This document shows positions 25,906 to 56,035 of a stretch of 64,000 nt of DNA, one piece after another. Both the position numbers and the translations under genes were made by a program. A model generated the notes under the pieces. It searched no databases. It was given only the letters and a program-made list of their open reading frames with translations, and had not been told where the DNA came from. Numbering within the stretch: the first letter of the stretch is position 1; each line of letters starts with the position of its first letter. The stretch comes from Methanomassiliicoccales archaeon (GTDB lineage Archaea; Thermoplasmatota; Thermoplasmata; RBG-16-68-12; SOIM01), in the NCBI GenBank assembly GCA_030593885.1, contig JAUVGH010000005.1, forward strand, positions 4,387 through 68,386, in the 5' to 3' direction.

Positions 25906-25907
25906 AT

Positions 25908-27734: not shown

Positions 27735-27756
27735 CGAAATACCATGCCACTCTTTC

Positions 27757-27764
27757 TATAAATA
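27757..27764 (-). promoter_or_regulatory. TATA-box-like element upstream of the HD hydrolase gene
   Basis: The minus strand reads AATATTTATAGAAAG, with the TTTATA core about 23 nt upstream of the ATG at 27734. Confidence 0.35.
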
Positions 27765-31721: not shown

Positions 31722-34673
31722 TTATGACCTATCCGTGCTATCCTCGAGGCGACCCAGTTCCTCCTTGACCTCATCAACCTTCCCGTGCAGTTCCATCCCT
31801 ACGAATATGTTCAAGGCTCTTTTCAGGTGCTCTTCGGCCCTTTTGCCGTCACCCTTCTCTCTCCACATACGCCCGAACTCGTACAGGGTCACTGCCAGTT
31901 CTTTCTCATGCCCAATCTCCTCGAAGATCCTGATACTCTCATCGAAGCTATTGGCAGACTCCTCCCATCTCTCCTTCTCACGGTGGATCTTGCCGCAGAG
32001 TCTGCTTGACGTCCCGATGTTCTCCTTGAGGCCGATTTCCACCGCCAATTCGGATGCCTTCTTGCTGAATCCCATCGACTTCTCCAGGTTGCCCATTTTG
32101 AAATGAAGCTCCGCGATGCCGTTGAGGGCGTAGGACAAACCTGCTGGGTCGTCAATCGACTCGTGCATCTTCAGGCATTTCTCGTAGTGTTCCAAAGCTT
32201 GATGATACTCTCCCCTGAGTCCGAGTGTCACGCCCAGATTGCCGTGGGCACCCGCAATGGATTGTTGACTGCCGACCCTCTCGAAGATCTCTAGGCCCAT
32301 CTCGTTGTGGTCCAGCCCCTTGTCATAGTCTCCCATCTCAGAGTATGCGATGCCGATGTTGATGAGCTGAGCAGCAACGGCCGGTAATGCTCCCATACTC
32401 TCCGAGACCTTCATGGTCTCCGAAAACAGCTCAACTGCCTTCGCAAACTCTCCCCTAGTAGTATACACCACGCCGAGGTTGCCGGTGTAGGATGAAGCGA
32501 GGTTCCGGTCATCGGTCTTCCTCGCCGCCTCAAGAGCCTCCGTGAAGTATTCGAGAGCCTCGTCGCATCTCCCGGTATGGAAGCACAAAATGCCGATGTT
32601 GCTGAGGGATCCGGCAAAGCCCTTCATGTCACCAATCTTCCGTCCTATCCCCTTGCCCCTTTCAAAGCATTCGAGGGCTCCGTCGTAGTCCGCTCTCTCC
32701 ATAAGCACAAGTCCGATGACATTGAGTATGTTCGCCTCCTCCTCTGACTCCTCGCCCTCGACCAAGCGCAAAGCACGGTTGCAGACTTCGATGGATTCGT
32801 CATAGTCTCCACTCATCTTCAGCGCCCTGCCGAGCAACGCTCCGACTCGCGCCTTTCCCTTCGTCTCGTGTGCGAGTTCCATCGCAGCCCTGAGGCACTC
32901 AACGCTCTTGTCATGCTCACCGGTCAGCAGGTGGATTTCTCCCACATTCTCGAGGATTTCGACCTTCTTCTCCTTGTCAGACTCGAATTTGAGCGCCTTG
33001 GTATAGAATCTTATAGCTTCCTCATTCGAAAACTCCTTCTTCGCCCTCTCCGCCGCCTTCATGAGGTAGTGCAGAGCCTTGTCCTTGTCTCTGCAGCGAC
33101 TGTAGTGGAATGCCAGGTCCTCTATCACTTCTTCAGGGTCGTCCTTGTGCTGCTCCTCCATCGAGCCCGCGACTATCGAGTGGTACTCCATTCTGAGTTC
33201 TGGCGGTATCTGTTCGTACAGGACTTCCTTGATCTTGGAGTGGTCGAATCTGAACTCGCCATTCTGGGTATGAACGAGGCTGTGCCTCTGCTCCAACGTC
33301 CTCAAGTGTTCCAGCAACTGGACCCTTTCGAGTCCGGTGGCGGAAGCGAGAATGCTCGAAGTGAATTCCTCTCCAATGACGCACGCGTAGTCGAGGATTT
33401 CCTTCAACTCTCCTCCTACCCGATTGAGTCTGCGAGTGATGAGGTCGAAGATCTTGGACGGGATGTGCATCGTCTCCGGATCCTCGGATATCCATACTCC
33501 CTCGTGACTCCTGATCAGTTCTTCCTCGGCTAGTAGCTTGATCAGCTCTATCAGGAACAGCGGGTTTCCCTCTGCTTCCTCATAGACTCTCTTCATGAAC
33601 TTGTCGCTGAAGTCTGTCTCCCCGAGCATGGAGGATAGGAAGTCAGATGCGCTCTCCTGAGGCAGTCTCTCCAGCTCGATTCTCTCGCACAGGTCCTCCC
33701 GGCTCATCATCTGCATGGTCTCGATCAGAGGGTGTGTCTTGCCTTCCCTCGCCACGATGTCCTCGGGTCTGTAAGTGCCGATGAGAAGAAGACTGCACTT
33801 CCTCGTGGTTCTCGCCGTGTAGTGCATCAGTGCCAGGGAAGAGGGATCCGCCCAGTGGAGGTCCTCGATGCATAGCAGGGTTGGCGCGGTCTCCGCCTGT
33901 CGAGTAAGGCCCAAGGAGACATTCTCGAACAGGAGATTCCTTCGCGCCGCCGGGTCCTGCAGTCCGAAGTAGACTCCATCGTACTTACCCGACGCGACGA
34001 GCGGTCGGAGTGTGTCCTCGATTCCCCGCACGCTATCCTCGTCTCCGTCCCATTGACGCAGGACATCTCCGTGGTTCTTCTGCACCTTCACCAGGATGTC
34101 TCTCATGTCGTTAATGAGGAATTCGTTCTCTCGTCCTGTGAGGATTACAACGAGATTCGTGTCCTTTCCGCTCTCAACGAGAATTCTGTGGTTCTCGTAT
34201 CCCAGACTGTTCAGCATTCCTTCTCTTTCCTCTCCGCTCAACATCGACAGAGAATCCTTGACGAAATCTCCGACGGTTGTGAGCATGGAAGCGAACAGGT
34301 CTGGATCGAGTTCTGTCTCCTTCCGCAGAACTTCCTTGACCAACAAGCCTGTATTCGTCACTAGGTAGACTGCTTCCACTCTTGGTGCTTCCTCTGCGAA
34401 AAGTGATTCCATTCCTCCTGATCTCAATGCTTCCAAGAAGGGCATGTAGGGCGTGAGGGATTCGTACAGACTGTTTCCACTCAATATCTTAAAACTTTCC
34501 GATTCTGCTATGTTCTTGATCTCTTCCAACAGTCTCGTCTTTCCTATTCCTGCTTCTCCTGACATGAATAGGGTGGTTCCACGTCCCTGTGAGGCATTGC
34601 TCAGGTGCTCACGAAGCTCTTTGAGTTCATTCTCCCGACCTATCATTTCGGGCTGAAAGTCGAGCTGTGCCAT
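31722..34673 (-). CDS. AAA_16/STAND-type ATPase with a Roadblock/LC7-like insertion and C-terminal TPR repeats
   Basis: - Walker A is GEAGIGKTRL and Walker B is LLCIEDLHWADPSS.
- Between them lies a segment of about 100 aa, VEAVYLVTNTGLLVKE...LFASMLTTVGDFVKDSLSML...HRILVESGKDTNLVVILTGRE, with a Roadblock/MglB-like pattern.
- The C-terminal half has many TPR-like repeats.
- ATG 34673 is preceded by GGAGGG, so the ORF-track start at 34748 is probably spurious. Confidence 0.8.
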   Translation of the reverse strand: MAQLDFQPEMIGRENELKELREHLSNASQGRGTTLFMSGEAGIGKTRLLEEIKNIAESESFKILSGNSLYESLTPYMPFLEALRSGGMESLFAEEAPRVEAVYLVTNTGLLVKEVLRKETELDPDLFASMLTTVGDFVKDSLSMLSGEEREGMLNSLGYENHRILVESGKDTNLVVILTGRENEFLINDMRDILVKVQKNHGDVLRQWDGDEDSVRGIEDTLRPLVASGKYDGVYFGLQDPAARRNLLFENVSLGLTRQAETAPTLLCIEDLHWADPSSLALMHYTARTTRKCSLLLIGTYRPEDIVAREGKTHPLIETMQMMSREDLCERIELERLPQESASDFLSSMLGETDFSDKFMKRVYEEAEGNPLFLIELIKLLAEEELIRSHEGVWISEDPETMHIPSKIFDLITRRLNRVGGELKEILDYACVIGEEFTSSILASATGLERVQLLEHLRTLEQRHSLVHTQNGEFRFDHSKIKEVLYEQIPPELRMEYHSIVAGSMEEQHKDDPEEVIEDLAFHYSRCRDKDKALHYLMKAAERAKKEFSNEEAIRFYTKALKFESDKEKKVEILENVGEIHLLTGEHDKSVECLRAAMELAHETKGKARVGALLGRALKMSGDYDESIEVCNRALRLVEGEESEEEANILNVIGLVLMERADYDGALECFERGKGIGRKIGDMKGFAGSLSNIGILCFHTGRCDEALEYFTEALEAARKTDDRNLASSYTGNLGVVYTTRGEFAKAVELFSETMKVSESMGALPAVAAQLINIGIAYSEMGDYDKGLDHNEMGLEIFERVGSQQSIAGAHGNLGVTLGLRGEYHQALEHYEKCLKMHESIDDPAGLSYALNGIAELHFKMGNLEKSMGFSKKASELAVEIGLKENIGTSSRLCGKIHREKERWEESANSFDESIRIFEEIGHEKELAVTLYEFGRMWREKGDGKRAEEHLKRALNIFVGMELHGKVDEVKEELGRLEDSTDRS

Positions 34674-34704
34674 ACACCCTCCACAATCTCCATCATATGT
34701 CTTC

Positions 34705-34712
34705 TTATATAA
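34705..34712 (-). promoter_or_regulatory. TATA-box-like element (TTATATAA) upstream of the ATPase-TPR gene
   Basis: TTATATAA lies about 32 nt upstream of ATG 34673, with GGAGGG in between. Confidence 0.4.
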
Positions 34713-34912
34713 TTTGCTCTTTCCTGACTTTCTCCAGCTCCCTCCCAAGCTTCAGCTCCTCATAGATCTCCATGGCCTTGTCGAATTGCCCCTTCGCCTA
34801 GTCAGAATCGCCATTGGCCTTCCACATCAACCTGAACTCGGTGATAGCCCATCCGGGTGAAAGAATGACATTCAGCCCCCTTATCCTCGTGAATAGGTAG
34901 GAACGGTAAGTT
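34705..34912 (-). pseudogene. Relic of the C-terminal end of another ATPase-TPR paralog
   Basis: My minus-strand translation is ...GWAITEFRLMWKANGDSD*AKGQFDKAMEIYEELKLGRELEKVRKEQII*. It aligns with the C-termini of both intact paralogs (YEFGRMWREKGDGKRAEEHLKRALNIFVGM... and HEAGLMWKMKGDPETARNYLVKALEIFRKL...). It carries an in-frame TAG at 34798..34800, and nothing remains upstream of about 34912. Confidence 0.7.
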
Positions 34913-40340: not shown

Positions 40341-40468
40341 TCGGCCGGTCCGACCGCTTATCGAGCGATCATTCCTCAGGAAGATGCCCGGTCAGCGACT
40401 CGGGATGACGAATAGTAGATATGTTTATCAACGAATCTAGCCCTTCCAGGCTGATGTGGTGCGGCTTC

Positions 40469-43213
40469 ATGAGGAGTAGGTTGTTACTGCCCTTGCTATG
40501 TACTGCGATCTTTGTTCTTGCCATATCGTCAGCATTCCCAACATTGACGACTGCACTTCCGGACAGCGTCGAGACCTTCGAAAACGAGATGGCCACCATG
40601 CCCGTCACTGTGTTCGCCAACGGGTCGGTCGTTTTCGTAGTTGCCAGTGACGGCCTCTCGTTTGGAGGCTTCACGATCGCCAACGTCTCGGATGAGATCT
40701 TTGGAGATTACATCTTCGTGGATCTCTATGATGACGGTACCGGCGGAGACAATCCGAATGATGGGGTCTACACCGGCAATTTCACCGTGGTCTACGATAT
40801 GGGCGTGAACGGCCAGTTCACGGACGATATCACGGACACACTGGACCTCATGGATGGAGGCGTAGCGACAGTCCTGGTGGACATAGACCTGCTGACTGAC
40901 TCTGGTTTCGCACAGATTCAAGGCGATTTCAGCCCTCCGAATGTCGCGATAAACAGCGGATCCGACACCGTTGACCTGGCATACACCCTGAACGCGACCA
41001 TAACCGATCCGAACATGGATACCGCGAACGTGTGGTACAACGTGGACGGAGGGACCGACCGAAGACTGGCCTTCATGGGCGATACTGAATACGAAACCCA
41101 GATCGACACCTCTTCTCTCCTCGACGGCCCCCACACGATAAGGGTAATCGCCTTCGACATCGTCCTGAACTCTGACAGCACCAAGACCGTGACGATAACA
41201 GTGGACCATCCCGCGCCGGATGTCAGCATCACAGTCACCCACACGCCTGATGAGCCCAAAGAGGGGGACAGAGTGACCTTCACCGTGGAGATCGAGAACA
41301 CTGGGGATGCCGATGCGGAAGATATCTCAGTTTCTCTGATAGTAGATGGGACCGAGATTGACACTCAGACCGAGACCATAGCAGCGGGAGGGACCTCGAC
41401 CGTTGAGCTGGAATGGACCGCGACCGAGGGACAGCATGACATCGAGGTTCAGTTGTCCGGGACAGGCGTGAATGTCGGTTCACCGCTGGAGGTCTTCGAC
41501 ATCCAGCCAGCTCCGGAAGATATTCTGGAGAATCCTTGGTTCTTGGCCGGATTGGTGGTCATCTTCACAATTGCCATGATCGGTGGCACGATAGTCTATG
41601 CCCGCACGGCCAGGGACCTAGCCAGAGGGACCGCACCCAAGTCCGCACCCGCTGAATATGCGACGACGGTACCCGTGGGAGCCAAGGGCCCCTGCGAAGA
41701 GATCAGATTGAAGTGGAAGGCGATCCAAGCGGAATACGAGAGGGCCAAGGCAGAGAGGGACGCCGCCAGGCAGAGAGCGGACGATCTCAAGGACAAGGCA
41801 CGAAAGGCCAGGGAAGAGGCTGAAAAGGCAAAGCAGGAAGCGGAAGCGGCGGAACAGGAAGCAGAGGAGACCAACAAGGCCTACGAAGAAGGAAAGAGAG
41901 CTCTGGAAGATGCCGACCAAGCTAAGGTCGATTTCTTTGACGACGTTCTCGAGAGGGGTATGTCGGTGGGAGACCCAGACATGGAGCAGCCCAACAACGT
42001 AGGCTTCTTCGGCGGTGAGGTGAAGATCTGGTTCTGGACGGCAGAGCAGGGCGAAAAGATCGCCGAATTCAAGAGGGAGAACAGGGAGAGATATGACGAG
42101 CTTCAGCAGGCAAATGACGACCTCAAGAAGGAACTGGAGCAATTGAAATCAGAAGCTGCCAGAGCGAACAGGGAGGCTGCGGAGGCGGAGGCAAGAGCTA
42201 AGGAGGCCGAAGCAAAGGCCCAGCAGGCGGAGAACGAAGCGGCCCAGGCGGAAGAGGAATATGAGAACCTCAAGAATGAAGCGGAGAATCTGAAGAACAA
42301 AGGGGAGGCCTTCAGGGAGAAATGGAGGATATGCAAGCTCAAGAGTCTGGAGGAGGCGACCGAGAGGGCCGAGAAGGCAGCACGGGAAGCCGCCGAAGCG
42401 GCCAGGAGGGCGAAGGACGCTCTCAACCCCGAAGACTACGAGAAGGCCAAGGAAGAGGCCGAGGACGCCAGGGACAGAGCGGGGGAAGCAGAGGAGGATG
42501 CTGAGGGCCTGAAGGATGACCTGGAAAACGAGGGAATGGACGAGGATACCAGCGATTTGGATGAAAGGATGCGGAGAGCGAGATTGGACGCGGACAATGC
42601 TGTCGATGAGGCCAAGCGCACGGGTGGAATGTTCTACCCGGACCCCAACAGCTTGGGAGGTCCGTGCAAACCCGGGGAGGAGAAGATCCTGGGCGAGAGC
42701 ACGCATCGATTCCAGTTCTTTGATCCGTCCAGGGATATCAAGATGCCCCACTTCTACGGGACCGAAGGTGGCACTGAAGCAGCGAAGGGATTCGCTGCAT
42801 ACCTGGGAGTCGTTTCGGAGATATGTGGAAAGATACAGGACGCCATAGAAGAGCTGCCGGGAGGCGGTCTGGTGGGAATGCCGCTTGAATACTGGTCGAG
42901 CATTATGGAGGCCGGAGGGGATGCGCTTGACAGTATCAGCGATCGGCCGGGACGTCTGGGCACGATCAACATGGGAGGACTCGAGATACCTACCATCACG
43001 TTCACGGTCACCTGCAGGGACAAGATTGTCTGCATTGACGGCACCTGGCAGGAGGTGTCGGAGAAGGTCTCAGAATCGGCACCAGTCAGGAGCCAGATAA
43101 CCTATCCGGACAACATAGCGGTCACGCCCAAAGAAGCAACTGAATGGGTGAGTAGAAGGTTGAAGACCCTGAAGAACCAGCAGACCAGGTACGAGGACGA
43201 TCCCTGCGGTTGA
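40469..43213 (+). CDS. Single-pass membrane protein: extracellular Ig-like/CARDB domains, long cytoplasmic coiled coil, C-terminal globular domain
   Basis: - Signal peptide: MRSRLLLPLLCTAIFVLAISSAFP.
- CARDB-like block: DRVTFTVEIENTGDADAEDISVSLIVDG...TVELEWTATEGQHDIEV.
- TM helix: WFLAGLVVIFTIAMIGGTIVYA.
- About 330 aa of A/E/K/R-rich coiled coil.
- About 230 aa of unassigned C-terminal domain. Confidence 0.7.
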   Translation: MRSRLLLPLLCTAIFVLAISSAFPTLTTALPDSVETFENEMATMPVTVFANGSVVFVVASDGLSFGGFTIANVSDEIFGDYIFVDLYDDGTGGDNPNDGVYTGNFTVVYDMGVNGQFTDDITDTLDLMDGGVATVLVDIDLLTDSGFAQIQGDFSPPNVAINSGSDTVDLAYTLNATITDPNMDTANVWYNVDGGTDRRLAFMGDTEYETQIDTSSLLDGPHTIRVIAFDIVLNSDSTKTVTITVDHPAPDVSITVTHTPDEPKEGDRVTFTVEIENTGDADAEDISVSLIVDGTEIDTQTETIAAGGTSTVELEWTATEGQHDIEVQLSGTGVNVGSPLEVFDIQPAPEDILENPWFLAGLVVIFTIAMIGGTIVYARTARDLARGTAPKSAPAEYATTVPVGAKGPCEEIRLKWKAIQAEYERAKAERDAARQRADDLKDKARKAREEAEKAKQEAEAAEQEAEETNKAYEEGKRALEDADQAKVDFFDDVLERGMSVGDPDMEQPNNVGFFGGEVKIWFWTAEQGEKIAEFKRENRERYDELQQANDDLKKELEQLKSEAARANREAAEAEARAKEAEAKAQQAENEAAQAEEEYENLKNEAENLKNKGEAFREKWRICKLKSLEEATERAEKAAREAAEAARRAKDALNPEDYEKAKEEAEDARDRAGEAEEDAEGLKDDLENEGMDEDTSDLDERMRRARLDADNAVDEAKRTGGMFYPDPNSLGGPCKPGEEKILGESTHRFQFFDPSRDIKMPHFYGTEGGTEAAKGFAAYLGVVSEICGKIQDAIEELPGGGLVGMPLEYWSSIMEAGGDALDSISDRPGRLGTINMGGLEIPTITFTVTCRDKIVCIDGTWQEVSEKVSESAPVRSQITYPDNIAVTPKEATEWVSRRLKTLKNQQTRYEDDPCG

Positions 43214-45940: not shown

Positions 45941-48202
45941 ATGAAGAAGCTGTGGAGGAGAAGTGCGGGTTCCGTACTGGTAGCGTGTCTAATGCTGAAC
46001 CTAACAGTTGTGACCGTCCTGTATCATGTTGTCGTTTCACCAGGGCATGACGATACGAACTCGTACGAGTTGCCTGGTTTCCCGGGGACGGGTTGGCTGG
46101 AACAGCCTGATCTGCCGGCAGAACTTGTGATACCAATTCCAAAGGAGCCGGATCCCAACAGGCCGGATCTGACCTTCGAGGAAGCTAGACAGTTATGGGA
46201 TGGCTTCATCGAGAGATCGCATCTATCCGGCCCCAACATCGATCCGACAAAGGTAGATTACTATACCAACATATCAGATTCCCTCAATCCTTACCCAAAT
46301 GAATGGGATCTCATCTCAGAGAATGGGTTCGTGGTTGTAAACCAAGGTAAGTGGGACACATTCGAAGATGCGTACTATCACTACTGGGTTCGTGACCTCC
46401 CGGTCATAATAACCACCGACACGATTCTGAATACATTCCATCTGCTTTTTGACCAATTCCTGCAAGAGGCAGAGAAGGAGACCTTTCGACCCTTGCTGGC
46501 CGAGATTTCAACTGCCCTGCTCCGGAAGGCTGATGATTTTCACGGCCGTGTCAAAGACCAGACATTGAAGGCCAACATGGAGGAGATTGTCGTGTTCTTT
46601 AGCGTCGCCTCTGAGCTTCTAGAAACAGGAGAGAGAATCCCGGACTATGTCCGAAGTGAAGTGAAGACCTATGTAAATAAGATACTGGAAGCGAAGGACG
46701 TTGAACAATACCCGGGTCAGGACTACACTCAGTACAAACCAAGGGGCCATTATGCAGGCGATCCGCTTCTGGAAACCTACTTCAGGGCCATGATGTGGTA
46801 TGGGCGCAAGTCTCTGGACATGCAAGTCAATGATGATGTGCTCCAAGCCTGTTTGATCTCTCTGGTGGTCCTGGCAAGTGAAAGGGCCCAGGTGAAATGG
46901 GCCACAATCTACGACATCACCAGCTATCTTGTGGGAAAATCTGACAGCTTGAATTTCGTGGACATACTCAAGGCAATGCACGCATCACTGGGCAAATGGG
47001 ACATAGACCTGTTGAAAACACCTTCACATGTGGAGAACGTCATGGAGGAGCTCAAGAAGGACGAATACTACAGACCGCGAATCCTCTCGGACGTCGTATA
47101 CAAGAATCCCAGCGAGATGTATAACGAGATGGAGTTCCCAAAGATATTCCAGTTCATGGGCCAGAGATACGTTCCAGATTCTGAGATAATGCAGAGCGTC
47201 ATGTATGACCGAGTGCCTTTATCTGAGGGAGGCAGAAGAGGTCTGCCATGGGCACTTGACGTCATGGCGGCTTTGGGCTCACCGCAGGCAGTTCACCATC
47301 TGGAGACTGAGCTAACGAAGTATGGCTACGAGGAGCAATTGAAGGACGCCTGGGCATCCGCCGAGACAAAGAGCGAAGGATACTGGGGGCAGTCAGCCTA
47401 TTTCGGTCTATTGCGATCATACAAAGAACTGATCTCGGGGAAGGAGGACGAGAGGTATCCCAGCTTCATGAGGACCGAGGCGTGGGCGGACGAGAAGCTG
47501 AACACGGCATTGGGATCATGGACGGAGCTCAGACATGACACGATTCTGTATGCCAAACAACCCTACTCAATGGGAATAACATGCGGAACGCCAGACGGAA
47601 TCGTTGAGCCGTATCCGACGTTCTATGAGAGAATGGAAGCGCTTTCGATAATGATGAGGGACATAATCGTCCGTGGCTTCGATCTAGACAAAACATTTGT
47701 CACCAGATTCATTGAGGTCTTCGAGGACTTTGCTGATATCAACTACAACCTTGCCTCGATCGCGAAGCATGAGCTCGAAGGGGAGAGATTGACGCCGGAT
47801 GAGAGTGCATTTGTGCGAGAGATCTTCGTAGAACAAAGAGGCGGAGGTTGTGGTGGTCCGGTGACTCGTGATGGATGGCTTCCGCGATTGATTGAGAAGG
47901 CCAAGATAAGTGAGAAGACAAAAGACTCAAGAATCGTTGCCGATGTTGCCACTGATCCTGGAAGTCCATTGACTGGAGATCCTCCGAGGATCCTTCATGT
48001 GGCCACTGGTTTCGTGCGCACAGTGATAGTGGCATATGAAATGCCCAATGGGGACCACTCCTTCTTCGTCGGACCGGTGTATTCCTTCTATGAATTCCCA
48101 ATGGGTAAGTTCAGCAGACTGAACGATGACGATTGGAAGAAACTTCTTGACTCGGATGACTGTCCTCCAGATCCGTTCTGGACTTCTTCGTTCATGGCCT
48201 GA
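45941..48202 (+). CDS. Secreted or anchored DUF3160-like protein
   Basis: N-terminal signal anchor (SVLVACLMLNLTVVTVLY). The YKPRGHY motif and the size of about 750 aa fit my recollection of DUF3160. The family call is tentative. Confidence 0.6.
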   Translation: MKKLWRRSAGSVLVACLMLNLTVVTVLYHVVVSPGHDDTNSYELPGFPGTGWLEQPDLPAELVIPIPKEPDPNRPDLTFEEARQLWDGFIERSHLSGPNIDPTKVDYYTNISDSLNPYPNEWDLISENGFVVVNQGKWDTFEDAYYHYWVRDLPVIITTDTILNTFHLLFDQFLQEAEKETFRPLLAEISTALLRKADDFHGRVKDQTLKANMEEIVVFFSVASELLETGERIPDYVRSEVKTYVNKILEAKDVEQYPGQDYTQYKPRGHYAGDPLLETYFRAMMWYGRKSLDMQVNDDVLQACLISLVVLASERAQVKWATIYDITSYLVGKSDSLNFVDILKAMHASLGKWDIDLLKTPSHVENVMEELKKDEYYRPRILSDVVYKNPSEMYNEMEFPKIFQFMGQRYVPDSEIMQSVMYDRVPLSEGGRRGLPWALDVMAALGSPQAVHHLETELTKYGYEEQLKDAWASAETKSEGYWGQSAYFGLLRSYKELISGKEDERYPSFMRTEAWADEKLNTALGSWTELRHDTILYAKQPYSMGITCGTPDGIVEPYPTFYERMEALSIMMRDIIVRGFDLDKTFVTRFIEVFEDFADINYNLASIAKHELEGERLTPDESAFVREIFVEQRGGGCGGPVTRDGWLPRLIEKAKISEKTKDSRIVADVATDPGSPLTGDPPRILHVATGFVRTVIVAYEMPNGDHSFFVGPVYSFYEFPMGKFSRLNDDDWKKLLDSDDCPPDPFWTSSFMA

Positions 48203-48336
48203 AGGGATGGCCTAGAGCAGAATTCGCGCCTCAACAAGATGGTTATCCTGAACGAAGTAGGGTACAGAGAAGTGTAGACTAGTCAATGAGCAGGATCTGG
48301 AGAAGACGAACTCGCAACTCCTGGAATAAACTATTT

Positions 48337-51300
48337 ATGACCGTATTCGGTTTTAGAGATGGAGGGGAAGCCCTGAAGTTAGATTTCCAGCCCGAGATGG
48401 TCGGTCGAGAGGAGGAGCTAAGAGAGCTTCAGGACCGTCTGAATGAAGCCTCGGACGGGCAAGGAAGGACTGTTCTCATCGCTGGAGAAGCTGGTGTCGG
48501 AAAGACAAGACTTGTGAACGAGCTGAAGGACATTGCAGCGGCCAAAGGATTTGCGGTTATGTCTGGAAACAGCATGTACGAATCATTGACGCCCTACTTG
48601 CCAATCTTGGATGCGTTGAGGTCGGGCGGTATGGAAACCCTTTTCGCGGAGGAGACTCCGAGGATCGAAGGTCTGTATCTGATAACGCACCAGGGCTTGC
48701 TGGCAAAGGAGGTCCTGAGAGAAGAGACCGGTCTGGATCCGGACCTGTTTGCCTCCATGCTTTCGACCGTTGGGGATTTTGTGAGAGATTCGCTGTCCAT
48801 GATGACTGGAGAGGAGAGAGAAGGAGCGCTGAACAGTCTCGGATATGAGAACTATACAATCATCATCAGCAGCGGCATAAGTGCCAATCTTGTGGCAATA
48901 CTCTCCGGCAGAGAGAACGAATTCCTGCTCAATGATCTGAGCGGGGTTCTATCAGAAGTCCACAGAGACTTCGGAAGCGTCCTCAAGGATTGGGATGGCG
49001 ACACAGAGAAGCTAGAGGGTCTCGAGAACCCGATGAAACCGTTGATAGCATCAGGGAAGTACGATGGAGCATACTACGGAATGGACAACCCCGAAGGGAG
49101 AAGGAATCTGCTTTTCGAGAACGTCTCGTTGGGGCTGATGCGGCATGCGAAATCCACGCCAACACTCTTGTGTATTGAGGACTTGCACTGGGCGGATCCT
49201 TCCTCACTGGCTATGATGCACTACGTTGTAAGGAACACTAGAGAGTGCAGTCTGCTGATGTTAGGCACCTTTCGGCCTGAGGACATTGGAGACACAGGAG
49301 GCGAACCTCATCCTCTGGTGGAAACGATGCAGATGATGAGCAGGGAGGACCTATATGAGAAGATGGAGCTGGCCAGGTTGCCCAAGGACAACTTGAACGA
49401 GCTCCTGTCAGCCTTGCTCGGAGAAGTTGACTTCGATGATAAGTTCAAAGATCTAATCTATCATGAGACCGAGGGGAATCCCCTCTTCATGCTCGAACTG
49501 GTGAAACTGCTGGTCGACGAGGGTGCGGTTTCTCCTCAAGAAGGGACATGGACGTTGGTCAAAGATCTTGGGACTGTCGATGTTCCCTCCAAGATAAACG
49601 ACGTGATTTTGAGAAGACTCGACCGCGTGAAAAGCGAACAACGGAAGATACTGGATTACGCTTCAGTTATTGGGGAGACCTTCACATCGGTTGTGCTTTC
49701 CGAAATCCTGAAATTGGACAGGGTTGAATTGCTGGAGCAACTAAGGCCCCTTCAAAAGACACATAGACTAATTCATCCTTTCAATGGGTGCTTCAGGTTT
49801 GACCACGCCAAGGTAAAGGAAGTGCTGTACGAAGAGACCCCGGAGGAGCTCAGAACGGAATACCATGCGATGATTGCGGATGCTATTGAGAGGCAGAATG
49901 AGGAAAATCTGGATGATGTGATTGGGAATTTGGCATATCACTATTATCTATGTGGGAACAAGAAGAAGGCACTCCAATATCTCACCAAGGCAGCGGATAA
50001 GGCGAAGAAGGAATACTCGAATGAGGAGGCGACAAGATTCTATAGACAGGCCCTAGACTGCGAGGAGAATCCAGACAAGAGAATGGAGATTCTCGAGAAT
50101 CTTGGAGACATCTATGGCTTGACCGGAGAGTATGAAAGAAGCATAGAATCCTATGAGAATTCGCTGCAACTGGCCGAAGAGGCAAGAGAGATTGTGGAAA
50201 TCAAATCGAAACTGGGAGGAATCTACGCAAAGATTGGGGAGTACGACCGGTCTATGGCAGTTTCTATCAAGGCCTTGGAGCTGATAAAGGGTGAAGACTG
50301 CGTTGAAGAGGCCCATGTCCTCAATAGGATTGGCAAAGTGCATTGGTTCAAAGATGAGTATGATGAAGCACTTCGGTATTTCGAGAACAGCCTGAGGATA
50401 GAGGAGAGAATTGATGATCCCGAGGGGATTGCGAAATCACTCATCAACATAGGTACCACGCATTTCCGCAGGGGGGACTTCGATAAAGCCCTTGAACATC
50501 TGGAGAGAAGCCTCAAAATAAGCAAGAAGATTGATGCCAAGGGATGCATTGCATCCTGCCTTTTGAACATAGGTAATGTCCGCTCTATTAAGGGGAAGTA
50601 CGACGAAGCCATTGAATATTACAGCAAGAGCTTGATGATATCCCAAGGAATCGGAGACCTATTAACCGTAGCCATAGTCCTCAACAACATTGGTATCATT
50701 CACTATGATAGAGGAGAATATGCTCTGGGACTTGAGTCCTATGAGAAGAGTAGGAAGATCGCGGAGAAGATTGACGATCAACAAGGCCTGTCGCGGACCT
50801 TAGGGAACATTGGGAGCATGTACGTAGACATGGATCAGTACGAGAAAGCTCGAGACTACTGCGAAAGGAGTTTGAGAATGTGCAAAGAAATCGGCACCCA
50901 GGGAATGGACCCGGTGAATCTCACCAACATGGGTGGCTTGAGTCTCGGATTGGGAGAATACGACAAGGCCCTGGAATACTGCGAGAGAAGTCTAGAAATA
51001 TCTGAGAGAATCGGAAGCAAGCAGAGTACGGCGGTCACGTATTTCATGCTGGCGGAAACCTATCTTCTCAAGGGGGACTTGGATAGCGCATCGCACTTCT
51101 GCGAAGCAGCAACTGATTTGTCCAACGAGATCGGTCTTAAGGTAATGGTTGGATGCACAAAGAGGATTCTCGGCATGATTTACCGAGAGCAAGGGAAGTG
51201 GGGGAAGTCTATTGAGAGCTTTGACGATTGTATCAGGATTCTCAGGGAGCTTGACGTGAAAAAGGAGTTGGGCAGAGCCTACCATGAGGCCGGTTTGATG

Positions 51301-51426
51301 TGGAAAATGAAAGGCGATCCAGAAACCGCACGAAACTATCTGGTCAAGGCCCTTGAGATCTTCCGGAAGCTGAATCTAGAGATGAGAGTGGAGAAGTCAA
51401 AGGAAGTACTGGATGAGCTTGCCTGA
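48337..51426 (+). CDS. AAA_16/STAND-type ATPase with a Roadblock/LC7-like insertion and C-terminal TPR repeats (paralog of 31722..34673)
   Basis: It is collinear with the other paralog, including LDFQPEMVGREEEL, GEAGVGKTRL, the insert IEGLYLITHQGLLAKE...LFASMLSTVGDFVRDSLSMM...YTIIISSGISANLVAILSGRE, LLCIEDLHWADPSS, and then TPR repeats. The start is uncertain. ATG 48337 is the nearest in-frame ATG upstream of the conserved N-terminus. Confidence 0.8.
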   Translation: MTVFGFRDGGEALKLDFQPEMVGREEELRELQDRLNEASDGQGRTVLIAGEAGVGKTRLVNELKDIAAAKGFAVMSGNSMYESLTPYLPILDALRSGGMETLFAEETPRIEGLYLITHQGLLAKEVLREETGLDPDLFASMLSTVGDFVRDSLSMMTGEEREGALNSLGYENYTIIISSGISANLVAILSGRENEFLLNDLSGVLSEVHRDFGSVLKDWDGDTEKLEGLENPMKPLIASGKYDGAYYGMDNPEGRRNLLFENVSLGLMRHAKSTPTLLCIEDLHWADPSSLAMMHYVVRNTRECSLLMLGTFRPEDIGDTGGEPHPLVETMQMMSREDLYEKMELARLPKDNLNELLSALLGEVDFDDKFKDLIYHETEGNPLFMLELVKLLVDEGAVSPQEGTWTLVKDLGTVDVPSKINDVILRRLDRVKSEQRKILDYASVIGETFTSVVLSEILKLDRVELLEQLRPLQKTHRLIHPFNGCFRFDHAKVKEVLYEETPEELRTEYHAMIADAIERQNEENLDDVIGNLAYHYYLCGNKKKALQYLTKAADKAKKEYSNEEATRFYRQALDCEENPDKRMEILENLGDIYGLTGEYERSIESYENSLQLAEEAREIVEIKSKLGGIYAKIGEYDRSMAVSIKALELIKGEDCVEEAHVLNRIGKVHWFKDEYDEALRYFENSLRIEERIDDPEGIAKSLINIGTTHFRRGDFDKALEHLERSLKISKKIDAKGCIASCLLNIGNVRSIKGKYDEAIEYYSKSLMISQGIGDLLTVAIVLNNIGIIHYDRGEYALGLESYEKSRKIAEKIDDQQGLSRTLGNIGSMYVDMDQYEKARDYCERSLRMCKEIGTQGMDPVNLTNMGGLSLGLGEYDKALEYCERSLEISERIGSKQSTAVTYFMLAETYLLKGDLDSASHFCEAATDLSNEIGLKVMVGCTKRILGMIYREQGKWGKSIESFDDCIRILRELDVKKELGRAYHEAGLMWKMKGDPETARNYLVKALEIFRKLNLEMRVEKSKEVLDELA

Positions 51427-51577
51427 CATCCGGTCGAGCAAGCAAACCTCAGACGCGAAATGGCAGACGATTTGAGGAGAGTTCTTCTCAGTTTATTTGG
51501 AGATCTGTAAGATCTTCCTACACTTACACTATCTGTATTGATTCCCATTATATGCCCTCACTCTCCTCTATCTCCTG

Positions 51578-54217
51578 ATGACGAGGGCGTTGCTGTTCAC
51601 AGGTGTGCTGCTTTTGAGCGCATTCTCCCTCCAAGCGTTGTCTTCACAGGCCGAACTACAGAACTCGATTGTCTTGAACGAAGTAGTCTACAATCCCCAA
51701 GGGCCTGAAGTTGAAGGTGAATGGATAGAGCTCTTCAACGGCGGAGACGACGTCGACATACAGGACTGGACCATAACGGACCAAGACAACTGGATTTTCC
51801 AGTTCCCCTCCCTTGCCGTTCCCCGGGAATGCTATATTGTTCTGCACATTGGTCCAGGCATTCCGGACAGCGACTTCGATGACTGCGTCGCACACCTGTA
51901 CTCGAACAGAACGACCCCTCGTCTCAACAATGCTGGCGATGATCTTCTCCTCCAGGATGGTCTTGGCGCTGCCATCGATTTTTTCAGCTACGGCTCCGGC
52001 AGTGGCCTCGACCATCCACCCCCCGGGATAGAGTGGGACTCGGCCGCTGAGACAGTCCCTGAAGGCTATTCGGCTTCGGTCTTTCCCAACGGATATGACG
52101 TCGACACACGCGAAAGCTGGGTCCAGTCCAACCCGAGCCCGGGAGAGACCAATGGAGAGCTGTCAGCGGTGCCAACGGACGTTAAGATCGCTGAAATCTA
52201 CTACAATGCTTACCGTGATGATGAGTACGTCGCGATAGAGAACTTCTCACCTGGAGAACAGGACATTAGCGGATGGACACTTACCGACCTGGAAGGGTAC
52301 GTGGCGTTCCCTGCTGGAACCTTGATCCCACCCCAGAACACCTTATATGTCACGAGGAACTCGACTTCTTTCTTCGAGGATACGCTCTTCCAGGCCGATT
52401 TCCAGTATGAGAATGGCGACGCTGCATCGATGGTCGTCATTGGCAACATACCCCGCCTGAACAACGATGGTGATGAGGTGATCCTGTTGGATGACCACGG
52501 GAGGGTAGTGGACGTCTTCATCTATGGGCATTCCAACTATGATGGAGCCGGATGGACGGGCGACGCTGCGGAAGACCTGTGGAAGGGGAAGATAGCCAAG
52601 AGAAGCTCAGAAACGAACTCGTCCGCGGACTGGATGGGTCTGAGAGAATACGGCATCGGTCAATCGGATTACGATGCGGACCTGCTGACCTTCGATGGTT
52701 CAATCACGGTTTTCTCGTCTCCTGATACGAGCTTTGAGGTCATCACCCAAGAGATAAGGATGGCCGAAGAGAGAATTGACATCAACCTGTACGAGTTCAC
52801 CAGCCATGAGATGGCCGACACTCTTGTCTCGGCCCTCGGAAGAGGGGTGTCTGTCAGAGTCCTGGTCGAGGGGTCGCCGGTCGGAGGCATCAAGACGCCT
52901 GAACTGGAGGTTCTCAACCGACTCTCAGATTCTGGAGCGGAGATACGACTTCTACGAGCAGACGAGTCAAACGACATTTACGCCAGATACACCTTCAACC
53001 ACGGGAAATACGCCTTGATAGACGGGGATGTGGTAGTTGTCTGCTCCGAGAACTGGGGGAACTCAGGTGTTCCTGAGAACAATCGAACGGGCAACAGAGG
53101 ATGGGGGATCCTGGTGAAGGCCAGCGAGGTCCATGATTACTACAGGAAGATCTTCGAAAGCGATTGGAACCCTCTGGCAGGCGACAGTGTCGAGTTTGAG
53201 AGTGTGAAAAAGGAAGTGGAACCGTTTGAACCGAACGAGAACCTGTTCACATCCTATGAGTATGCAGGTGGCTTTCCGATTCGTTCAATTCAAGGGAGCT
53301 TCAGTGTGAGACCGGTCATTTCGCCCGACACATCCCTGGACGACTCGACCATAATCGAGATGATAAGATCGGCCGAGGACGAGATACTGCTGGAACAGTT
53401 CTACATCCGTCCCCATTGGGGAAAGGACACCGAGACCATGAACCCATATCTCGATGAGATCATCAAGGCAGCCCGGAAGGGTGTAAGAGTGCAGGTTCTC
53501 CTGGACTCAAGCTGGTACAACGTGGGCGATGACGATCCCTACAATAATGACGATGTCGTGGCCGACCTCAACGAACTCGGAGATTCGGAGGGTCTTCAGA
53601 TAGAGGCGAAACTGATCGATTCCAATTCCCACGGGTTCCTGAAGCTGCATAACAAAGGTATGATAACAGACGGGAATACAGTGCTAATATCAAGCATCAA
53701 CTGGAACAAGAACTCGATAGCGTCCAACAGGGAGATCGGGATCATAGTGTACGACGTGGAAGTGGCATCCTTCTACCGGGAACTGTTCTTCTACGACTGG
53801 CGTGATGATGTGACCAAACCGATCGCGGACGCTGGAGAGGATAGGGTCGTGGTTCAACATGAGGCGTTTCAACTCGACGCAAGCGGCTCGTTCGACGATG
53901 TGGGCATAGTGAACTACAGCTGGGACCTGAACAATGACGGAGTGTACGAGGCATTTGGCCCCAACGCATCAGTGAGTTTTGGCACAGTGGGCAACTTCAC
54001 GATGACCTTGAAGGTGGAGGATATCTGGGGCAACATCGGGACCGACTCCTGCTTGATTAGCGTCATATCAGATGATGAGGCGGCCCAGACGCCAACCCAG
54101 AACGTATGGGGAGGCATAGCCCTGATGACGGTCGTTTTCATTGGTATCTTGGTGCCGGCAACGTTCTTTCTAGCCAGATACAGGAAGCAAAAAGATATAA
54201 GAAAGCCCGATGAATAA
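51578..54217 (+). CDS. Surface-anchored protein: two lamin-tail (LTD) domains, two phospholipase D/Nuc-type HKD domains, a PKD domain and a C-terminal TM anchor
   Basis: - Signal peptide.
- LTD pattern twice: IVLNEVVYNPQG...GEWIELFNGGDDVDIQDWTITD and VKIAEIYYNA...EYVAIENFSPGEQDISGWTLTD.
- HKD motifs: FNHGKYALIDG and KLHNKGMITDG...SSINWN.
- PKD-like block: DASGSFDDVGIVNYSWDLNNDG.
- C-terminal helix: IALMTVVFIGILVPATFFL. Confidence 0.75.
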   Translation: MTRALLFTGVLLLSAFSLQALSSQAELQNSIVLNEVVYNPQGPEVEGEWIELFNGGDDVDIQDWTITDQDNWIFQFPSLAVPRECYIVLHIGPGIPDSDFDDCVAHLYSNRTTPRLNNAGDDLLLQDGLGAAIDFFSYGSGSGLDHPPPGIEWDSAAETVPEGYSASVFPNGYDVDTRESWVQSNPSPGETNGELSAVPTDVKIAEIYYNAYRDDEYVAIENFSPGEQDISGWTLTDLEGYVAFPAGTLIPPQNTLYVTRNSTSFFEDTLFQADFQYENGDAASMVVIGNIPRLNNDGDEVILLDDHGRVVDVFIYGHSNYDGAGWTGDAAEDLWKGKIAKRSSETNSSADWMGLREYGIGQSDYDADLLTFDGSITVFSSPDTSFEVITQEIRMAEERIDINLYEFTSHEMADTLVSALGRGVSVRVLVEGSPVGGIKTPELEVLNRLSDSGAEIRLLRADESNDIYARYTFNHGKYALIDGDVVVVCSENWGNSGVPENNRTGNRGWGILVKASEVHDYYRKIFESDWNPLAGDSVEFESVKKEVEPFEPNENLFTSYEYAGGFPIRSIQGSFSVRPVISPDTSLDDSTIIEMIRSAEDEILLEQFYIRPHWGKDTETMNPYLDEIIKAARKGVRVQVLLDSSWYNVGDDDPYNNDDVVADLNELGDSEGLQIEAKLIDSNSHGFLKLHNKGMITDGNTVLISSINWNKNSIASNREIGIIVYDVEVASFYRELFFYDWRDDVTKPIADAGEDRVVVQHEAFQLDASGSFDDVGIVNYSWDLNNDGVYEAFGPNASVSFGTVGNFTMTLKVEDIWGNIGTDSCLISVISDDEAAQTPTQNVWGGIALMTVVFIGILVPATFFLARYRKQKDIRKPDE

Positions 54218-54225
54218 CCACAATC

Positions 54226-55224
54226 GTGGACCCTGCAAAAGACATTTCTGCGAGCGAGATAGAGAAGTTCGCTTACTGTCCGTTGAGCTGGTGGCTGAGC
54301 GATTCTGATGATGAGCAGACACCCGAGCTGGAAGAGGGTGAGAAGAAACACAAACGCATGTCGAAGAAGATACATGACATACTCACCCACGAGGAGAAGG
54401 CAAAGGAGAATGAAACGAACGTGCTCTTCTTTGCGATCGCTGCCTCAATGGTCGCCGTTCTCGGCCTCGCGTTCCTGTACAGACCCGTACTGGACGTAAG
54501 CATGATACTGGGGGTCATCTCCCTGATATGGCTGCTTGCAGCCGTGTATTTCCTCTACAGGGCAGAAACAATCTCGACAGAATCCGAGAGGCTCCTCGCA
54601 GAGAGAATCATCCTGGTTTTCGCAATGGTAGCCACGATAGTGGCTGCGTTCATGATCATCTTCGCGCTGATCGAGGACGCCCAACTGGCAGAGATCGTCG
54701 GATCGATTGCTCTCGCGTGGCTGGTAGGTGCGACCTTCTTCCTGTACCACTCACTGAGATACATGGAACTCGCTGCAATGGCGAGGGAGAAGCATGGTAT
54801 AGGATCCAGTGACATAGTTTACATCGACGAGCTGGACGAGAAACCAAAGATGTTCATCTCCAAGAGATTCGGTCTCAGGGGAAGACCTGACTACGTTCTC
54901 CTGGCAGACGACAACCACATACCAGTGGAGGTCAAGACAGGCAGGAACCCGAGAGGACCATTGTTCTCGCACATCCTCCAGACGGCCACCTACTGCCTTC
55001 TACTGGAAGAGGAATACGGCAAACCCCCTCCGTTCGGACTTCTGAGATACGAGAGCAGCCAGCACGAGATAGACTACACCCCGGACCTGAAGAAGCTCGT
55101 TCTGAGCAAACTCATTGAAATGAGGGAGCTGATGGAGACCAAGAAGGTGCACAGGAACCACAATAGAAAGGGCAAATGCATTCACTGTTCCAGAAGGGAC
55201 AAATGCCCAGAGAAGCTGGCCTAA
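54226..55224 (+). CDS. Cas4-like PD-(D/E)xK nuclease with a four-helix transmembrane insertion
   Basis: - Cas4 hallmarks appear in order: the N-terminal Cys in EKFAYCPLSWWL, GRPDYVLLADDNHIPVEVKTG (D...ExK), QTATYCLLLEE (QxxxY), and the C-terminal GKCIHCSRRDKC.
- Between the first Cys and the core lie four hydrophobic helices: VLFFAIAASMVAVLGLAFLY, MILGVISLIWLLAAVYFLY, IILVFAMVATIVAAFMIIFALI, IVGSIALAWLVGATFFLY.
- GTG start 8 nt after the upstream stop. Confidence 0.7.
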   Translation: MDPAKDISASEIEKFAYCPLSWWLSDSDDEQTPELEEGEKKHKRMSKKIHDILTHEEKAKENETNVLFFAIAASMVAVLGLAFLYRPVLDVSMILGVISLIWLLAAVYFLYRAETISTESERLLAERIILVFAMVATIVAAFMIIFALIEDAQLAEIVGSIALAWLVGATFFLYHSLRYMELAAMAREKHGIGSSDIVYIDELDEKPKMFISKRFGLRGRPDYVLLADDNHIPVEVKTGRNPRGPLFSHILQTATYCLLLEEEYGKPPPFGLLRYESSQHEIDYTPDLKKLVLSKLIEMRELMETKKVHRNHNRKGKCIHCSRRDKCPEKLA

Positions 55225-55529
55225 TCCTTCTCTTCTTCAACCAGGTCATCGATCTTCTTCTTGATCTCCTTGACCTCTTTTCTCATCTGGAGCATCTCTT
55301 CCTCGAAAGGCGTGAAGCTCTTTACAGAAAATATCCTGTGAGAGATCAGGACCCCCATGAACGCTGCGCCGACGACCGCAAGCACGGCGATGATTACGAG
55401 AGCCAGAACGAACACGAAGAAGTAGGATATCAGGTCTGTCAGCCTGATGGCCTCGGTTATCTCGGCGACGAAGATGGAGAAGAGAACAATGACGACTATC
55501 AGCCAGAGAACGACCCATCTGAGCCTCAT
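55221..55529 (-). CDS. Small two-TM membrane protein with a charged C-terminal helix
   Basis: 102-aa ORF with two hydrophobic helices and the tail EEEMLQMRKEVKEIKKKIDDLVEEEKD. It competes with overlapping ORFs in other frames. Confidence 0.45.
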   Translation of the reverse strand: MRLRWVVLWLIVVIVLFSIFVAEITEAIRLTDLISYFFVFVLALVIIAVLAVVGAAFMGVLISHRIFSVKSFTPFEEEMLQMRKEVKEIKKKIDDLVEEEKD

Positions 55530-56035
55530 CAGGACTCGACCTCCTGGGAAATGACGTCCCTGTAAGGGAATGAATCTTCGGTTGTGATGATCGGTTCCTC
55601 CCTGTCTGGCAGGAGCACATTGATGATGGGGTCGCCATCAATATCCTCGCCGATCTCGACCTCGCAGCCGTACTCCAAGATGTCCTCCCCCACCATAATG
55701 GTGATGTTGAGCTGGAAATGTGTTGAATGGACGTCCTGTACGATGACCGTCACACCAATCGTATTGTAGCTGGTGTCGGATGAGCTCCAGTTGTTCCCGG
55801 AAATGTCCAGGACATCCATCGTAACGTACGGGTATCTGGTCGTTTCCACGGCGCCCTCAACGTAGATGCGGGTCTCCCCCTCGGCGTGATCGATCAGCAG
55901 CCTGGGAATGGCACCCAGAGAACTGCCTCTTTCGAGGAACAGAGGCGTCAACAAGACGAGTGCGAGAAGGACCAGCACCGTCCCGAACATCAGTATCCTC
56001 CTGAGCATCGAATTGCCAACAGGATGCGAGTACAT
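55529..56035 (-). CDS. Signal-anchored protein of unknown function
   Basis: 168-aa ORF with an N-terminal hydrophobic helix (ILMFGTVLVLLALVLLTPLFL). It directly abuts the downstream small membrane protein gene. Confidence 0.45.
   Translation of the reverse strand: MYSHPVGNSMLRRILMFGTVLVLLALVLLTPLFLERGSSLGAIPRLLIDHAEGETRIYVEGAVETTRYPYVTMDVLDISGNNWSSSDTSYNTIGVTVIVQDVHSTHFQLNITIMVGEDILEYGCEVEIGEDIDGDPIINVLLPDREEPIITTEDSFPYRDVISQEVES

Follow-up and report, generated by a model that had tools for sequence, protein, structure and literature searches.

A Thermoplasmatota family of predicted integral-membrane solo-Cas4 nucleases, with an LTD-PLD surface protein as neighbour in one clade

Introduction

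Cas4 nucleases, both those associated with CRISPR and the stand-alone forms known as solo-Cas4, are regarded as soluble proteins. Solo-Cas4 is present in most archaea and its role is poorly understood, so that a clue to the place in the cell where such an enzyme acts would be welcome. In M. mazei, the soluble solo-Cas4 acts as an Fe-S nuclease of double-stranded DNA, and growth slows when it is overexpressed (PMC12501428); the 2017 phylogenomic survey of Cas4 by Hudaiberdiev et al. mentions no transmembrane form (PMC5704561). Here we describe a gene for a Cas4-like protein with a predicted transmembrane (TM) insertion, which we call Cas4TM, and its upstream neighbour, a gene for a surface protein with a phospholipase D (PLD) module. 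Both lie in a stretch of 64,000 nucleotides (nt) from a Methanomassiliicoccales archaeon (contig JAUVGH010000005.1, positions 4,387 to 68,386), and "the window" means this whole stretch. An earlier note on it had described a surface protein translationally adjacent to a Cas4-like nuclease split by a four-helix membrane insertion, and had proposed that the two could form a paired device for DNA uptake or for membrane-proximal defence.

Cas4TM has the fold of the CRISPR-associated Cas4 proteins (TIGR00372/PF01930; 8d3l, 7mi4, 4ic1 of SSO0001 and 4r5q of Pcal_0546) and all their motifs, including EGxxxH. In contrast to them, it is encoded without cas1, cas2 or an array nearby, it carries about 115 amino acids (aa) of TM hairpins and stalks between EGxxxH and motif II, and it is predicted to be membrane-integral, whereas the known Cas4 proteins are soluble. 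Membrane-fixed nucleases are known from bacterial DNA uptake, as in EndA of S. pneumoniae and in ComEC channels with a nuclease domain, and in these the nuclease domains face outward. Cas4TM is also membrane-fixed, but the folds are unrelated, its Cas4 domain would face the cytoplasm, and there are no competence genes in its locus. The closest described relatives are the archaeal solo-Cas4 proteins, which like Cas4TM are stand-alone, are encoded outside CRISPR loci and have the residues of a 4Fe-4S nuclease (PMC5704561; M. mazei, PMC12501428). They also resemble it in an apparently mostly vertical inheritance, with branches at about the order level (PMC5704561), and they differ from it in being soluble. 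Its predicted membrane integration sets Cas4TM apart from all the Cas4 and solo-Cas4 proteins described so far. A membrane form of Cas4 was also looked for in the literature, and the searchable part of it contained no description, in agreement with the earlier note, which knew of no characterised membrane-embedded form. The "Cas4-like" protein of the JCVI-syn3.0 paper was considered as a precedent and discarded, since it is a different, soluble fusion.

The neighbouring surface protein has in common with the PLD enzymes that carry two HKD motifs (7e0m, PLD3/PLD4, Nuc/NucT and DrmC of DISARM) a bilobal module of about 390 aa and two HxKx4D motifs. Unlike them, it is fused to two lamin-tail domains (LTD), a PKD domain and a C-terminal anchor, and its scores against the equivalog models are far under the cut-offs. 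The Shewanella extracellular nuclease ExeM is built on similar lines, as a signal peptide and an LTD at the N-terminus precede a phosphoesterase module and the C-terminus bears a hydrophobic anchor, but ExeM has an EEP plus YhcR-like catalytic module where the window protein has PLD (PMC6085458).

We consider it fairly likely that the protein encoded in 54226-55224 belongs to a family of integral-membrane solo-Cas4 proteins that extends over the Thermoplasmatota and is apparently inherited vertically, and in which the PLD gene is a neighbour in one clade and not a defining part. A class-level lineage with its solo-Cas4 in the membrane would offer a spatial clue to function, namely DNA ends at the membrane. 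Moreover, globular enzyme domains that are interrupted in nature by a membrane insertion are rare, and Cas4TM would be such a case, with a modular copy number (1, 2 or 4 hairpins).

Results and discussion

Identity and fold of the Cas4-like protein

The open reading frame (ORF) of Cas4TM (54226..55224, plus strand, GTG start) codes for 332 aa and was identified by hidden Markov models (HMM), motifs, and structure prediction with AlphaFold2 (AF2) followed by Foldseek. Three HMMs gave scores over their curated cut-offs, TIGR00372 with 70.4 (cut-off 65), PF01930 with 34.0 (22.7) and PF12705 with 51.6 (22), and the matches are confined to aa ~201-328. This part is the nuclease core (54841..55221, plus strand), which is delimited by the HMM matches, the invariant columns and the fold match, and which contains D222, E235-x-K237, Q252xxxY256 and C318xxC321x5C327. 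The N-terminal Cas4 segment (54241..54351, plus strand), recognised by conservation and by alignment to 8d3l and 7mi4, comprises a helix that bears C18 (54277-54279) and, at aa 37-42, the EGxxxH motif. The hallmarks that the earlier note had read in the protein, that is, the N-terminal Cys, D..ExK, QxxxY and CxxCx5C, are thus all present, and the Cas_Cas4 and PDDEXK_1 searches support them.

In 63 homologues, Y17, C18, G219, P221, P233, K237, H249, Q252, Y256, R310, H312, C318, C321 and C327 are invariant, and D222, E235, G38 and H42 are conserved in at least 90%. A single-sequence phmmer search against the PDB gave no match, whereas the profile of the 63 sequences did match, and it aligned aa 6-52 to the N-termini of the solved Cas4 structures 8d3l and 7mi4, covering the Cys and EGxxxH (G38, H42). 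The AF2 model built with the 63-sequence alignment (pLDDT 88.7, pTM 0.75) presents four long helices and a Cas4-like beta core, the helices spanning aa 33-84, 91-115, 119-147 and 152-190 and the core following them. With this model, Foldseek found the type I-C Cas4 (8d3q/8d3l) as the top match, together with 4ic1 (SSO0001), 4r5q, MGME1, Dna2 and ACE1, at a probability of 1.00. The HMM scores over threshold, the D..ExK and QxxxY motifs, the four cluster Cys and the predicted three-dimensional fold support the assignment to the Cas4 family, as a nuclease that a membrane insertion divides in two. The catalytic residues, invariant or at least 90% conserved throughout the family, argue for a working nuclease, and by analogy with soluble Cas4 and solo-Cas4 we infer that Cas4TM would be a metal-dependent, Fe-S-containing DNA nuclease. 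In databases, the family members are annotated as "Cas4", "Dna2/Cas4 domain-containing", "PD-(D/E)XK nuclease" or "hypothetical protein".

The membrane insertion

The insertion consists of two tandem TM hairpins (54415..54753, plus strand), formed by TM1 (54415-54477), TM2 (54496-54561), TM3 (54601-54669) and TM4 (54688-54753). The corresponding hydrophobic segments of the protein (aa ~64-84, 91-112, 126-148 and 155-176) reach means of 2.3-3.0 on the Kyte-Doolittle scale over 19 residues. These values, the AF2 helices and the positive-inside charges described below all predict membrane-spanning segments, as had been proposed. The break point comes after the N-terminal Cys/EGxxxH segment and before the core with D..ExK, QxxxY and CxxCx5C. 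It had been placed between the first Cys and the nuclease core, and this position holds, but the segment before the insertion was found to carry EGxxxH besides the first Cys; therefore the active site, and not the Fe-S site alone, would be assembled from both sides of the insertion.

Hairpin 1 (TM1-2) and hairpin 2 (TM3-4) align over 51 aa without gaps, with z = 9.7 against shuffled sequences. The number of helices in 178 full-length members is 4 in most cases (146), 2 in 18, 8 in 12, and 3 and 7 in one member each, which means an even number in 176 of the 178; the two odd counts look like threshold misses. As judged from these sequences, the inserted unit is a TM hairpin that has been duplicated and occurs in 1, 2 or 4 copies, so that the helix number is necessarily even. 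In 52 four-helix members, the mean content of Lys plus Arg per sequence is 3.4 before TM1, 0.6 in loop 1, 2.3 in loop 2, 0.4 in loop 3 and 3.8 after TM4. By the positive-inside rule, this pattern supports an N-in/C-in topology with both nuclease halves predicted to be cytoplasmic. The argument that an even number of helices keeps the first Cys and the C-terminal Cys on the same side of the membrane is borne out by both the helix counts and the charges. With this topology, the two halves could come together again as a single nuclease domain at the cytoplasmic face, carried by two short helical stalks.

The frequency of the majority residue is 0.49-0.56 in the TM helices, compared with 0.64 in the core and 0.22-0.41 in the loops and stalks. 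The conserved residues of the helices are small or aromatic, with no conserved polar ones, and a W-L-x-x-A-x-x-F-L-Y motif is repeated. The exhaustive search of representative homologues also yielded forms that are longer, with 500-600 aa, or shorter, with 260-285 aa. In P0198 and P0183, an extra segment of about 110 aa is found in loop 1 and is predicted to be extracytoplasmic; in P0198 it contains a Cys-rich stretch. Another group of proteins of about 175 aa (P0229, P0238, P0216, P0219 and P0248) presents a single N-terminal TM helix directly before a Cas4 core with the three C-terminal Cys, without the N-terminal Cys/EGxxxH segment. From their sequences, these could represent a second, independently membrane-anchored form of Cas4, or a split gene with the other half elsewhere.

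Distribution and genomic context

Homologues of the Cas4 protein fall in 993 clusters at E <=1e-3, and the best 120 are nearly all full-length, with about 330 aa. A scan of one genome per GTDB species, made with an alignment of 8 Cas4 sequences, found a relative in 312 species. Among the matches listed, all the species bearing Cas4TM are represented by metagenome-assembled genomes (MAGs) of Thermoplasmata/Thermoplasmatota, some of them labelled Methanomassiliicoccales or "Methanobacteriota". The nearest relative is a Thermoplasmata MAG with 96% identity. The relatives come from Thermoplasmata of sediment, soil and groundwater, and an origin from Marine Group II, considered at first, was discarded on these grounds. 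The sequence itself was found in cold-seep and marine-sediment metagenomes. In the Cas4 tree, the clades coincide with the classes of gene context. These observations are consistent with a membrane Cas4 family that is Thermoplasmatota-wide and apparently vertically inherited.

No CRISPR array was detected when the window was searched for tandem repeats, and no cas1 or cas2 gene adjoins Cas4TM in the window or in about 90 related loci. As neither the adaptation genes nor an array is adjacent, the protein should be classed as a solo-Cas4. It has the stand-alone gene and the mostly vertical inheritance of that group, but not the solubility, as it presents four predicted TM helices and the insertion is family-wide.

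As regards a role in defence, the window places Cas4TM in a core-genome setting (genes for FBPase, TIM, Kae1, malic enzyme and an SQR-like protein), and the locus is not a defence island. PADLOC returned domain-level matches to Cas4 and DrmC without system partners, and none for the small proteins or the ribbon-helix-helix (RHH) protein encoded nearby. No relative of Cas4TM was found in the IMG/VR viral contigs scanned. These observations speak against the membrane-proximal defence device suggested in the earlier note.

The LTD-PLD-PKD surface protein

The PLD protein is encoded in 51578..54217 (plus strand) and has 879 aa. Two lamin-tail domains (PF00932; 51659..52528, plus strand) follow the signal peptide, the first at approximately aa 28-160 and the second at aa 198-317. 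Then comes the bilobal PLD catalytic module (PF13091 twice; 52691..53812, plus strand), with HKD1 at 53000-53023 (HGKYALID, aa 475-482) and HKD2 at 53648-53671 (HNKGMITD, aa 691-698), both of the form HxKx4D. The PKD domain (PF18911 and PF00801; 53813..54064, plus strand) is followed by a C-terminal TM anchor located by the hydrophobicity scan (54101..54175, plus strand) and by the basic tail RYRKQKDIRKPDE. This architecture agrees with the one read previously: Pfam matched LTD in two stretches (112 bits), PLDc_2 in two stretches (156 bits) and PKD_4/PKD, and the motif and hydrophobicity scans found the rest. The hydrophobic stretches are a signal-like one at the N-terminus (aa 4-22) and the TM segment (aa 843-867) with the basic tail after it, from which the protein is predicted to be membrane-bound in the type I orientation and to expose its catalytic part to the exterior, that is, an outward-facing, membrane-anchored phosphodiesterase.

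Membership in the PLD superfamily is given by the two HxKx4D motifs, by the double PF13091 match and by the bilobal fold of the AF2 model of aa 355-745 (pLDDT 91.7, pTM 0.92). In Foldseek, the top matches of the module were the PLD 7e0m, the human 5'-exonucleases PLD3/PLD4 and vaccinia F13, with Streptomyces lipases next, at E-values of 1e-20 to 1e-23; the modelled fold is equally near to lipases and to the PLD3/PLD4 exonucleases. The NucT and DrmC models gave 50-66 bits against cut-offs of 133-351, and the Nuc match is sub-threshold as well. Both ExeM (PMC6085458) and a nuclease from DNA-degrading sediment organisms (PMC8289736) contain an LTD, and by analogy the protein could plausibly be an extracellular nuclease that scavenges sediment DNA.

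The PKD domain is missing from the PLD orthologues of GC-rich relatives. In these relatives (L018, L021, L022, L025, L026, L029, L031, L034-L036 and others), the PLD frame stays open for 119-185 nt into the Cas4 ORF, beyond the TM anchor, in Arg-rich sequence. We read these apparent overlaps of the two ORFs as a PLD frame that continues without a stop codon beyond the anchor, with a tail that may or may not be translated.

Linkage between the PLD and Cas4 genes

In the window, the PLD and Cas4 ORFs are on the same strand with a gap of 8 nt. The arrangement extends beyond the window: among the loci with enough flanking DNA to be informative, the PLD gene is directly upstream of Cas4TM in 47 of 69. 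These PLD-positive loci form one large clade in the Cas4 tree, with one loss of the PLD gene within it (L014), and they share a syntenic block. In this block, the PLD and Cas4 genes are followed by genes on the opposite strand for a 102-aa protein with two TM helices, a 168-aa protein and an RHH protein, then by an aminotransferase gene in the direction of Cas4 and by Kae1 in the opposite one. The spacing between the PLD and Cas4 ORFs ranges from -185 to +45 nt in 54 loci of the clade, over deep divergence.

Outside this clade the picture is different. Two other clades have none of the block genes, and examples from them adjoin MetRS/Mtr genes or genes for a TPD-domain protein and GlmS. In a third PLD-less clade, all that is left of the block is the 102-aa gene, next to a 152-aa gene that may correspond to the 168-aa one, and the surrounding genes code for AcnX, eIF-2B and a sulfotransferase. 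Distant members without PLD (one with 2 TM helices, L009; two with 8, L090 and L092; and one with 4 helices and 28-32% identity, L091) have housekeeping or unrelated neighbours. On the PLD side, proteins with LTD and two HKD motifs are also encoded in other Thermoplasmatota and in MAGs labelled Halobacteriota and Deltaproteobacteria, and related two-HKD proteins without LTD occur in Methanoplanus and Myxococcota; at the two loci of such LTD-PLD homologues that were examined, no Cas4 neighbour was seen.

Adjacency in independent contexts and reciprocal association, as expected of a conserved two-gene system, were therefore not found, and the conservation of the gene pair is that of a single syntenic clade. 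Of the paired PLD/Cas4 device put forward in the earlier note, the adjacency stands, in the 47 loci mentioned, but an obligate pairing is not supported, as the adjacency belongs to one clade and both genes occur apart. The pairing is confined to one branch, and an obligate two-part machine is unlikely; a looser functional link, with cutting outside and processing inside, may exist within that clade.

The transcription signals bear on the same question. A TATA-like element, TTATATG (51548..51554, plus strand), can be read about 24-30 nt upstream of the PLD ATG and is the putative PLD promoter. A BRE/TATA-like element, AAAAAGATATAAGAAAG (54188..54204, plus strand), is located 22-38 nt upstream of the Cas4 GTG, inside the end of the PLD coding sequence, and is the putative Cas4 promoter. 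The Cas4 start could be placed in 74 of the loci L001-L089, and the start codon is GTG in 59 of them. Across these 74 loci, with or without PLD upstream, the AT content peaks at positions -36..-25 relative to the Cas4 start, and where PLD is present the element falls within the end of its coding sequence. When the genome exceeds 60% GC, an AT fraction of 0.73 in this stretch compares with 0.19-0.38 on its flanks, and the peak is kept even at 65-70% GC. The Cas4 gene is therefore probably transcribed from a promoter of its own, as a leaderless or near-leaderless mRNA, in which case translational coupling to PLD is not needed; some transcripts may also read through from PLD. The "translational adjacency" described earlier thus holds as a distance, and the gap of 8 nt looks like compaction, which is no proof of coupling.

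Proposed function and alternative explanations

If 54226-55224 belongs to a vertically inherited family of integral-membrane solo-Cas4 proteins, as we favour, the two Cas4 halves would reassemble on the cytoplasmic face of the membrane, held on the two helical stalks. This tethering would confine the enzyme to the inner membrane surface, away from the nucleoid, where it could act on DNA ends that arrive through the membrane or lie at it, such as those of taken-up, transferred or injected DNA.

Several points weigh against this reading or against its details. The substrate and role of Cas4TM are inferred for every member of the family, and the Cas4 promoter element has been deduced from sequence only. 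The ORF spacing kept between PLD and Cas4 could reflect selection for co-expression and not passive synteny. In the 8-TM locus L007, an LTD protein is encoded upstream and ends 4 nt inside the Cas4 start, with both small genes present, on a contig that ends before a PLD module of this protein could be seen; this neighbour, outside the PLD clade, hints that the LTD association may predate one clade. As for transcription, contigs from one metatranscriptome run of uncertain type contain fragments of the PLD gene, the 3' end of Cas4, both small genes and the aminotransferase gene, and a true RNA run gave one contig of 151 nt at the PLD 3' end; these contigs cover too little of the locus to reveal where transcription starts or whether it continues from PLD into Cas4. 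The conserved sequence of the TM helices suggests more than a passive anchor and is left unaccounted for. Finally, the PLD protein could be a lipid enzyme, as its modelled fold does not discriminate between the two activities.

Some of these observations would fit a dedicated two-compartment device for DNA uptake and processing, in which the LTD-PLD protein would bind and cut DNA outside and Cas4TM, possibly with the two small membrane proteins, would take over the incoming strand at the inner face and trim or degrade it, the genes being co-expressed as a single unit in this clade. The tight same-strand packing in 54 loci (gaps of -185 to +45 nt), a PLD protein predicted to be outward-facing and membrane-anchored with its tail beside the membrane, the LTD protein upstream of one 8-TM variant and the sediment habitat are all in line with it. 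So are the presence of LTD on extracellular nucleases (PMC6085458, PMC8289736) and the PLD-family nuclease NucT, which has been implicated in purine salvage and natural transformation (PMC5714352). Nevertheless, the adjacency is limited to one clade, where synteny extends to the entire block, Cas4TM was sampled without PLD in three other clades and in distant variants, LTD-PLD homologues exist without a Cas4TM neighbour, and Cas4TM apparently has its own promoter. In addition, the block has no channel, ATPase or pilus genes, and the TM helices bear small and aromatic residues with no conserved polar ones. We therefore regard a dedicated device as unlikely. If the PLD link or a passage of DNA should be true, it would bear on the little-understood uptake or scavenging of DNA in sediment archaea; if not, Cas4TM remains a well-defined protein family.

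Innate defence at the membrane, where a tethered nuclease would destroy entering linear viral or plasmid DNA and its location would serve to discriminate self from non-self, seems to us quite improbable. Cas4 family members and PLD (DrmC-like) domains do occur in defence systems, solo-Cas4 genes of DPANN adjoin restriction-modification genes (PMC5704561), and a STAND-like AAA_16-TPR gene is found just upstream in the window. But this last gene is absent from the loci of most relatives, the PADLOC matches are at domain level with no system partners, there is no copy in viral contigs, and the clade-wide, apparently vertical distribution in a core-metabolic neighbourhood is unlike that of defence islands. 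It would be just as surprising if the membrane region were the functional centre, for example in an oligomeric assembly, with the Cas4 domain being structural, sensing (Fe-S redox) or otherwise not acting on DNA, and the PLD protein an unrelated surface hydrolase of lipids or phosphodiesters. The TM helices nearly as conserved as the catalytic core, their repeated motif and the loop 1 insert of about 110 aa, predicted to be extracytoplasmic, in some homologues would agree with such an arrangement, and the nuclease catalytic residues, invariant or at least 90% conserved family-wide, speak against it. By analogy with the large oligomers of SSO0001 and of the M. mazei solo-Cas4, one could also imagine a ring of Cas4TM in which the TM hairpins and the 2-TM partner form or gate a nuclease-coupled pore for DNA import (or export), fed by the outward-facing LTD-PLD protein in one clade. 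Such a pore would parallel the bacterial EndA/ComEC in function while being made of unrelated parts, and we give this idea very little credence.

Convergent genes downstream of Cas4TM

The small 2-TM protein of 102 aa (55221..55529, minus strand) is encoded convergently with Cas4TM, and the stop codons of the two genes overlap by 4 nt (CTAA). Its gene is the most constant neighbour of Cas4TM, adjoining it in 66 of 85 loci, with the overlap of 4 nt in 53 of the 66, and it is kept beside Cas4TM in a clade with otherwise different block genes and in the 8-TM locus L007. The protein presents a conserved juxtamembrane motif, SHRIFSxxxFTPFEEEMLxMR, and has no counterpart in Pfam; JGI assigns it to the "DUF106 family", a label that we discarded, as Pfam lends it no support even at E = 5. 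It has 1243 homologues, every one of them from Thermoplasmata or Thermoplasmatota. In a metagenome scan centred on this gene, Cas4TM was adjacent in 76 of 76 informative loci, all of them from the same clade, so that the scan does not provide an independent test of the linkage. The 102-aa protein would be a likelier physical partner of Cas4TM than the PLD protein.

The gene directly upstream of it (55529..56035, minus strand) codes for the 168-aa protein, which has an N-terminal TM helix or signal and a beta-rich domain with no Pfam match. L007 has a weak homologue in the corresponding place, and another, in L086, is doubtful. Next, the RHH (CopG-like) protein (PF01402; 56170..56514, minus strand) is conserved in the PLD-positive clade.

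Other features of the window

Upstream of the PLD gene, the region between TIM and PLD differs from that of loci L004 and L005 by the insertion of a STAND-like gene (48286-51426, plus strand) and a DUF3160 gene (45941-48202). The former is paralogous to another gene of the window (31722-34748, minus strand), both coding for AAA_16 plus TPR (STAND-like) proteins of about 1000 aa with a weakly BrxC/D-like N-terminus. A soluble four-Cys PD-(D/E)XK nuclease of 285 aa, separate from Cas4TM and with a full-length match to PF12705, is encoded in 25048-25905 (minus strand), near a dGTPase-like HD protein (26499-27734, minus strand). The surrounding region, 22000-28000, has a GC content of 0.40-0.44 compared with about 0.50 elsewhere, with all genes on the minus strand, and may be a defence or acquired islet. 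Finally, a multi-haem c-type cytochrome (PF13447; 38865-40340, plus strand) is followed by a CARDB surface protein of 930 aa (40421-43213, plus strand), a pair whose sequences hint at extracellular electron transfer in this Thermoplasmata lineage.

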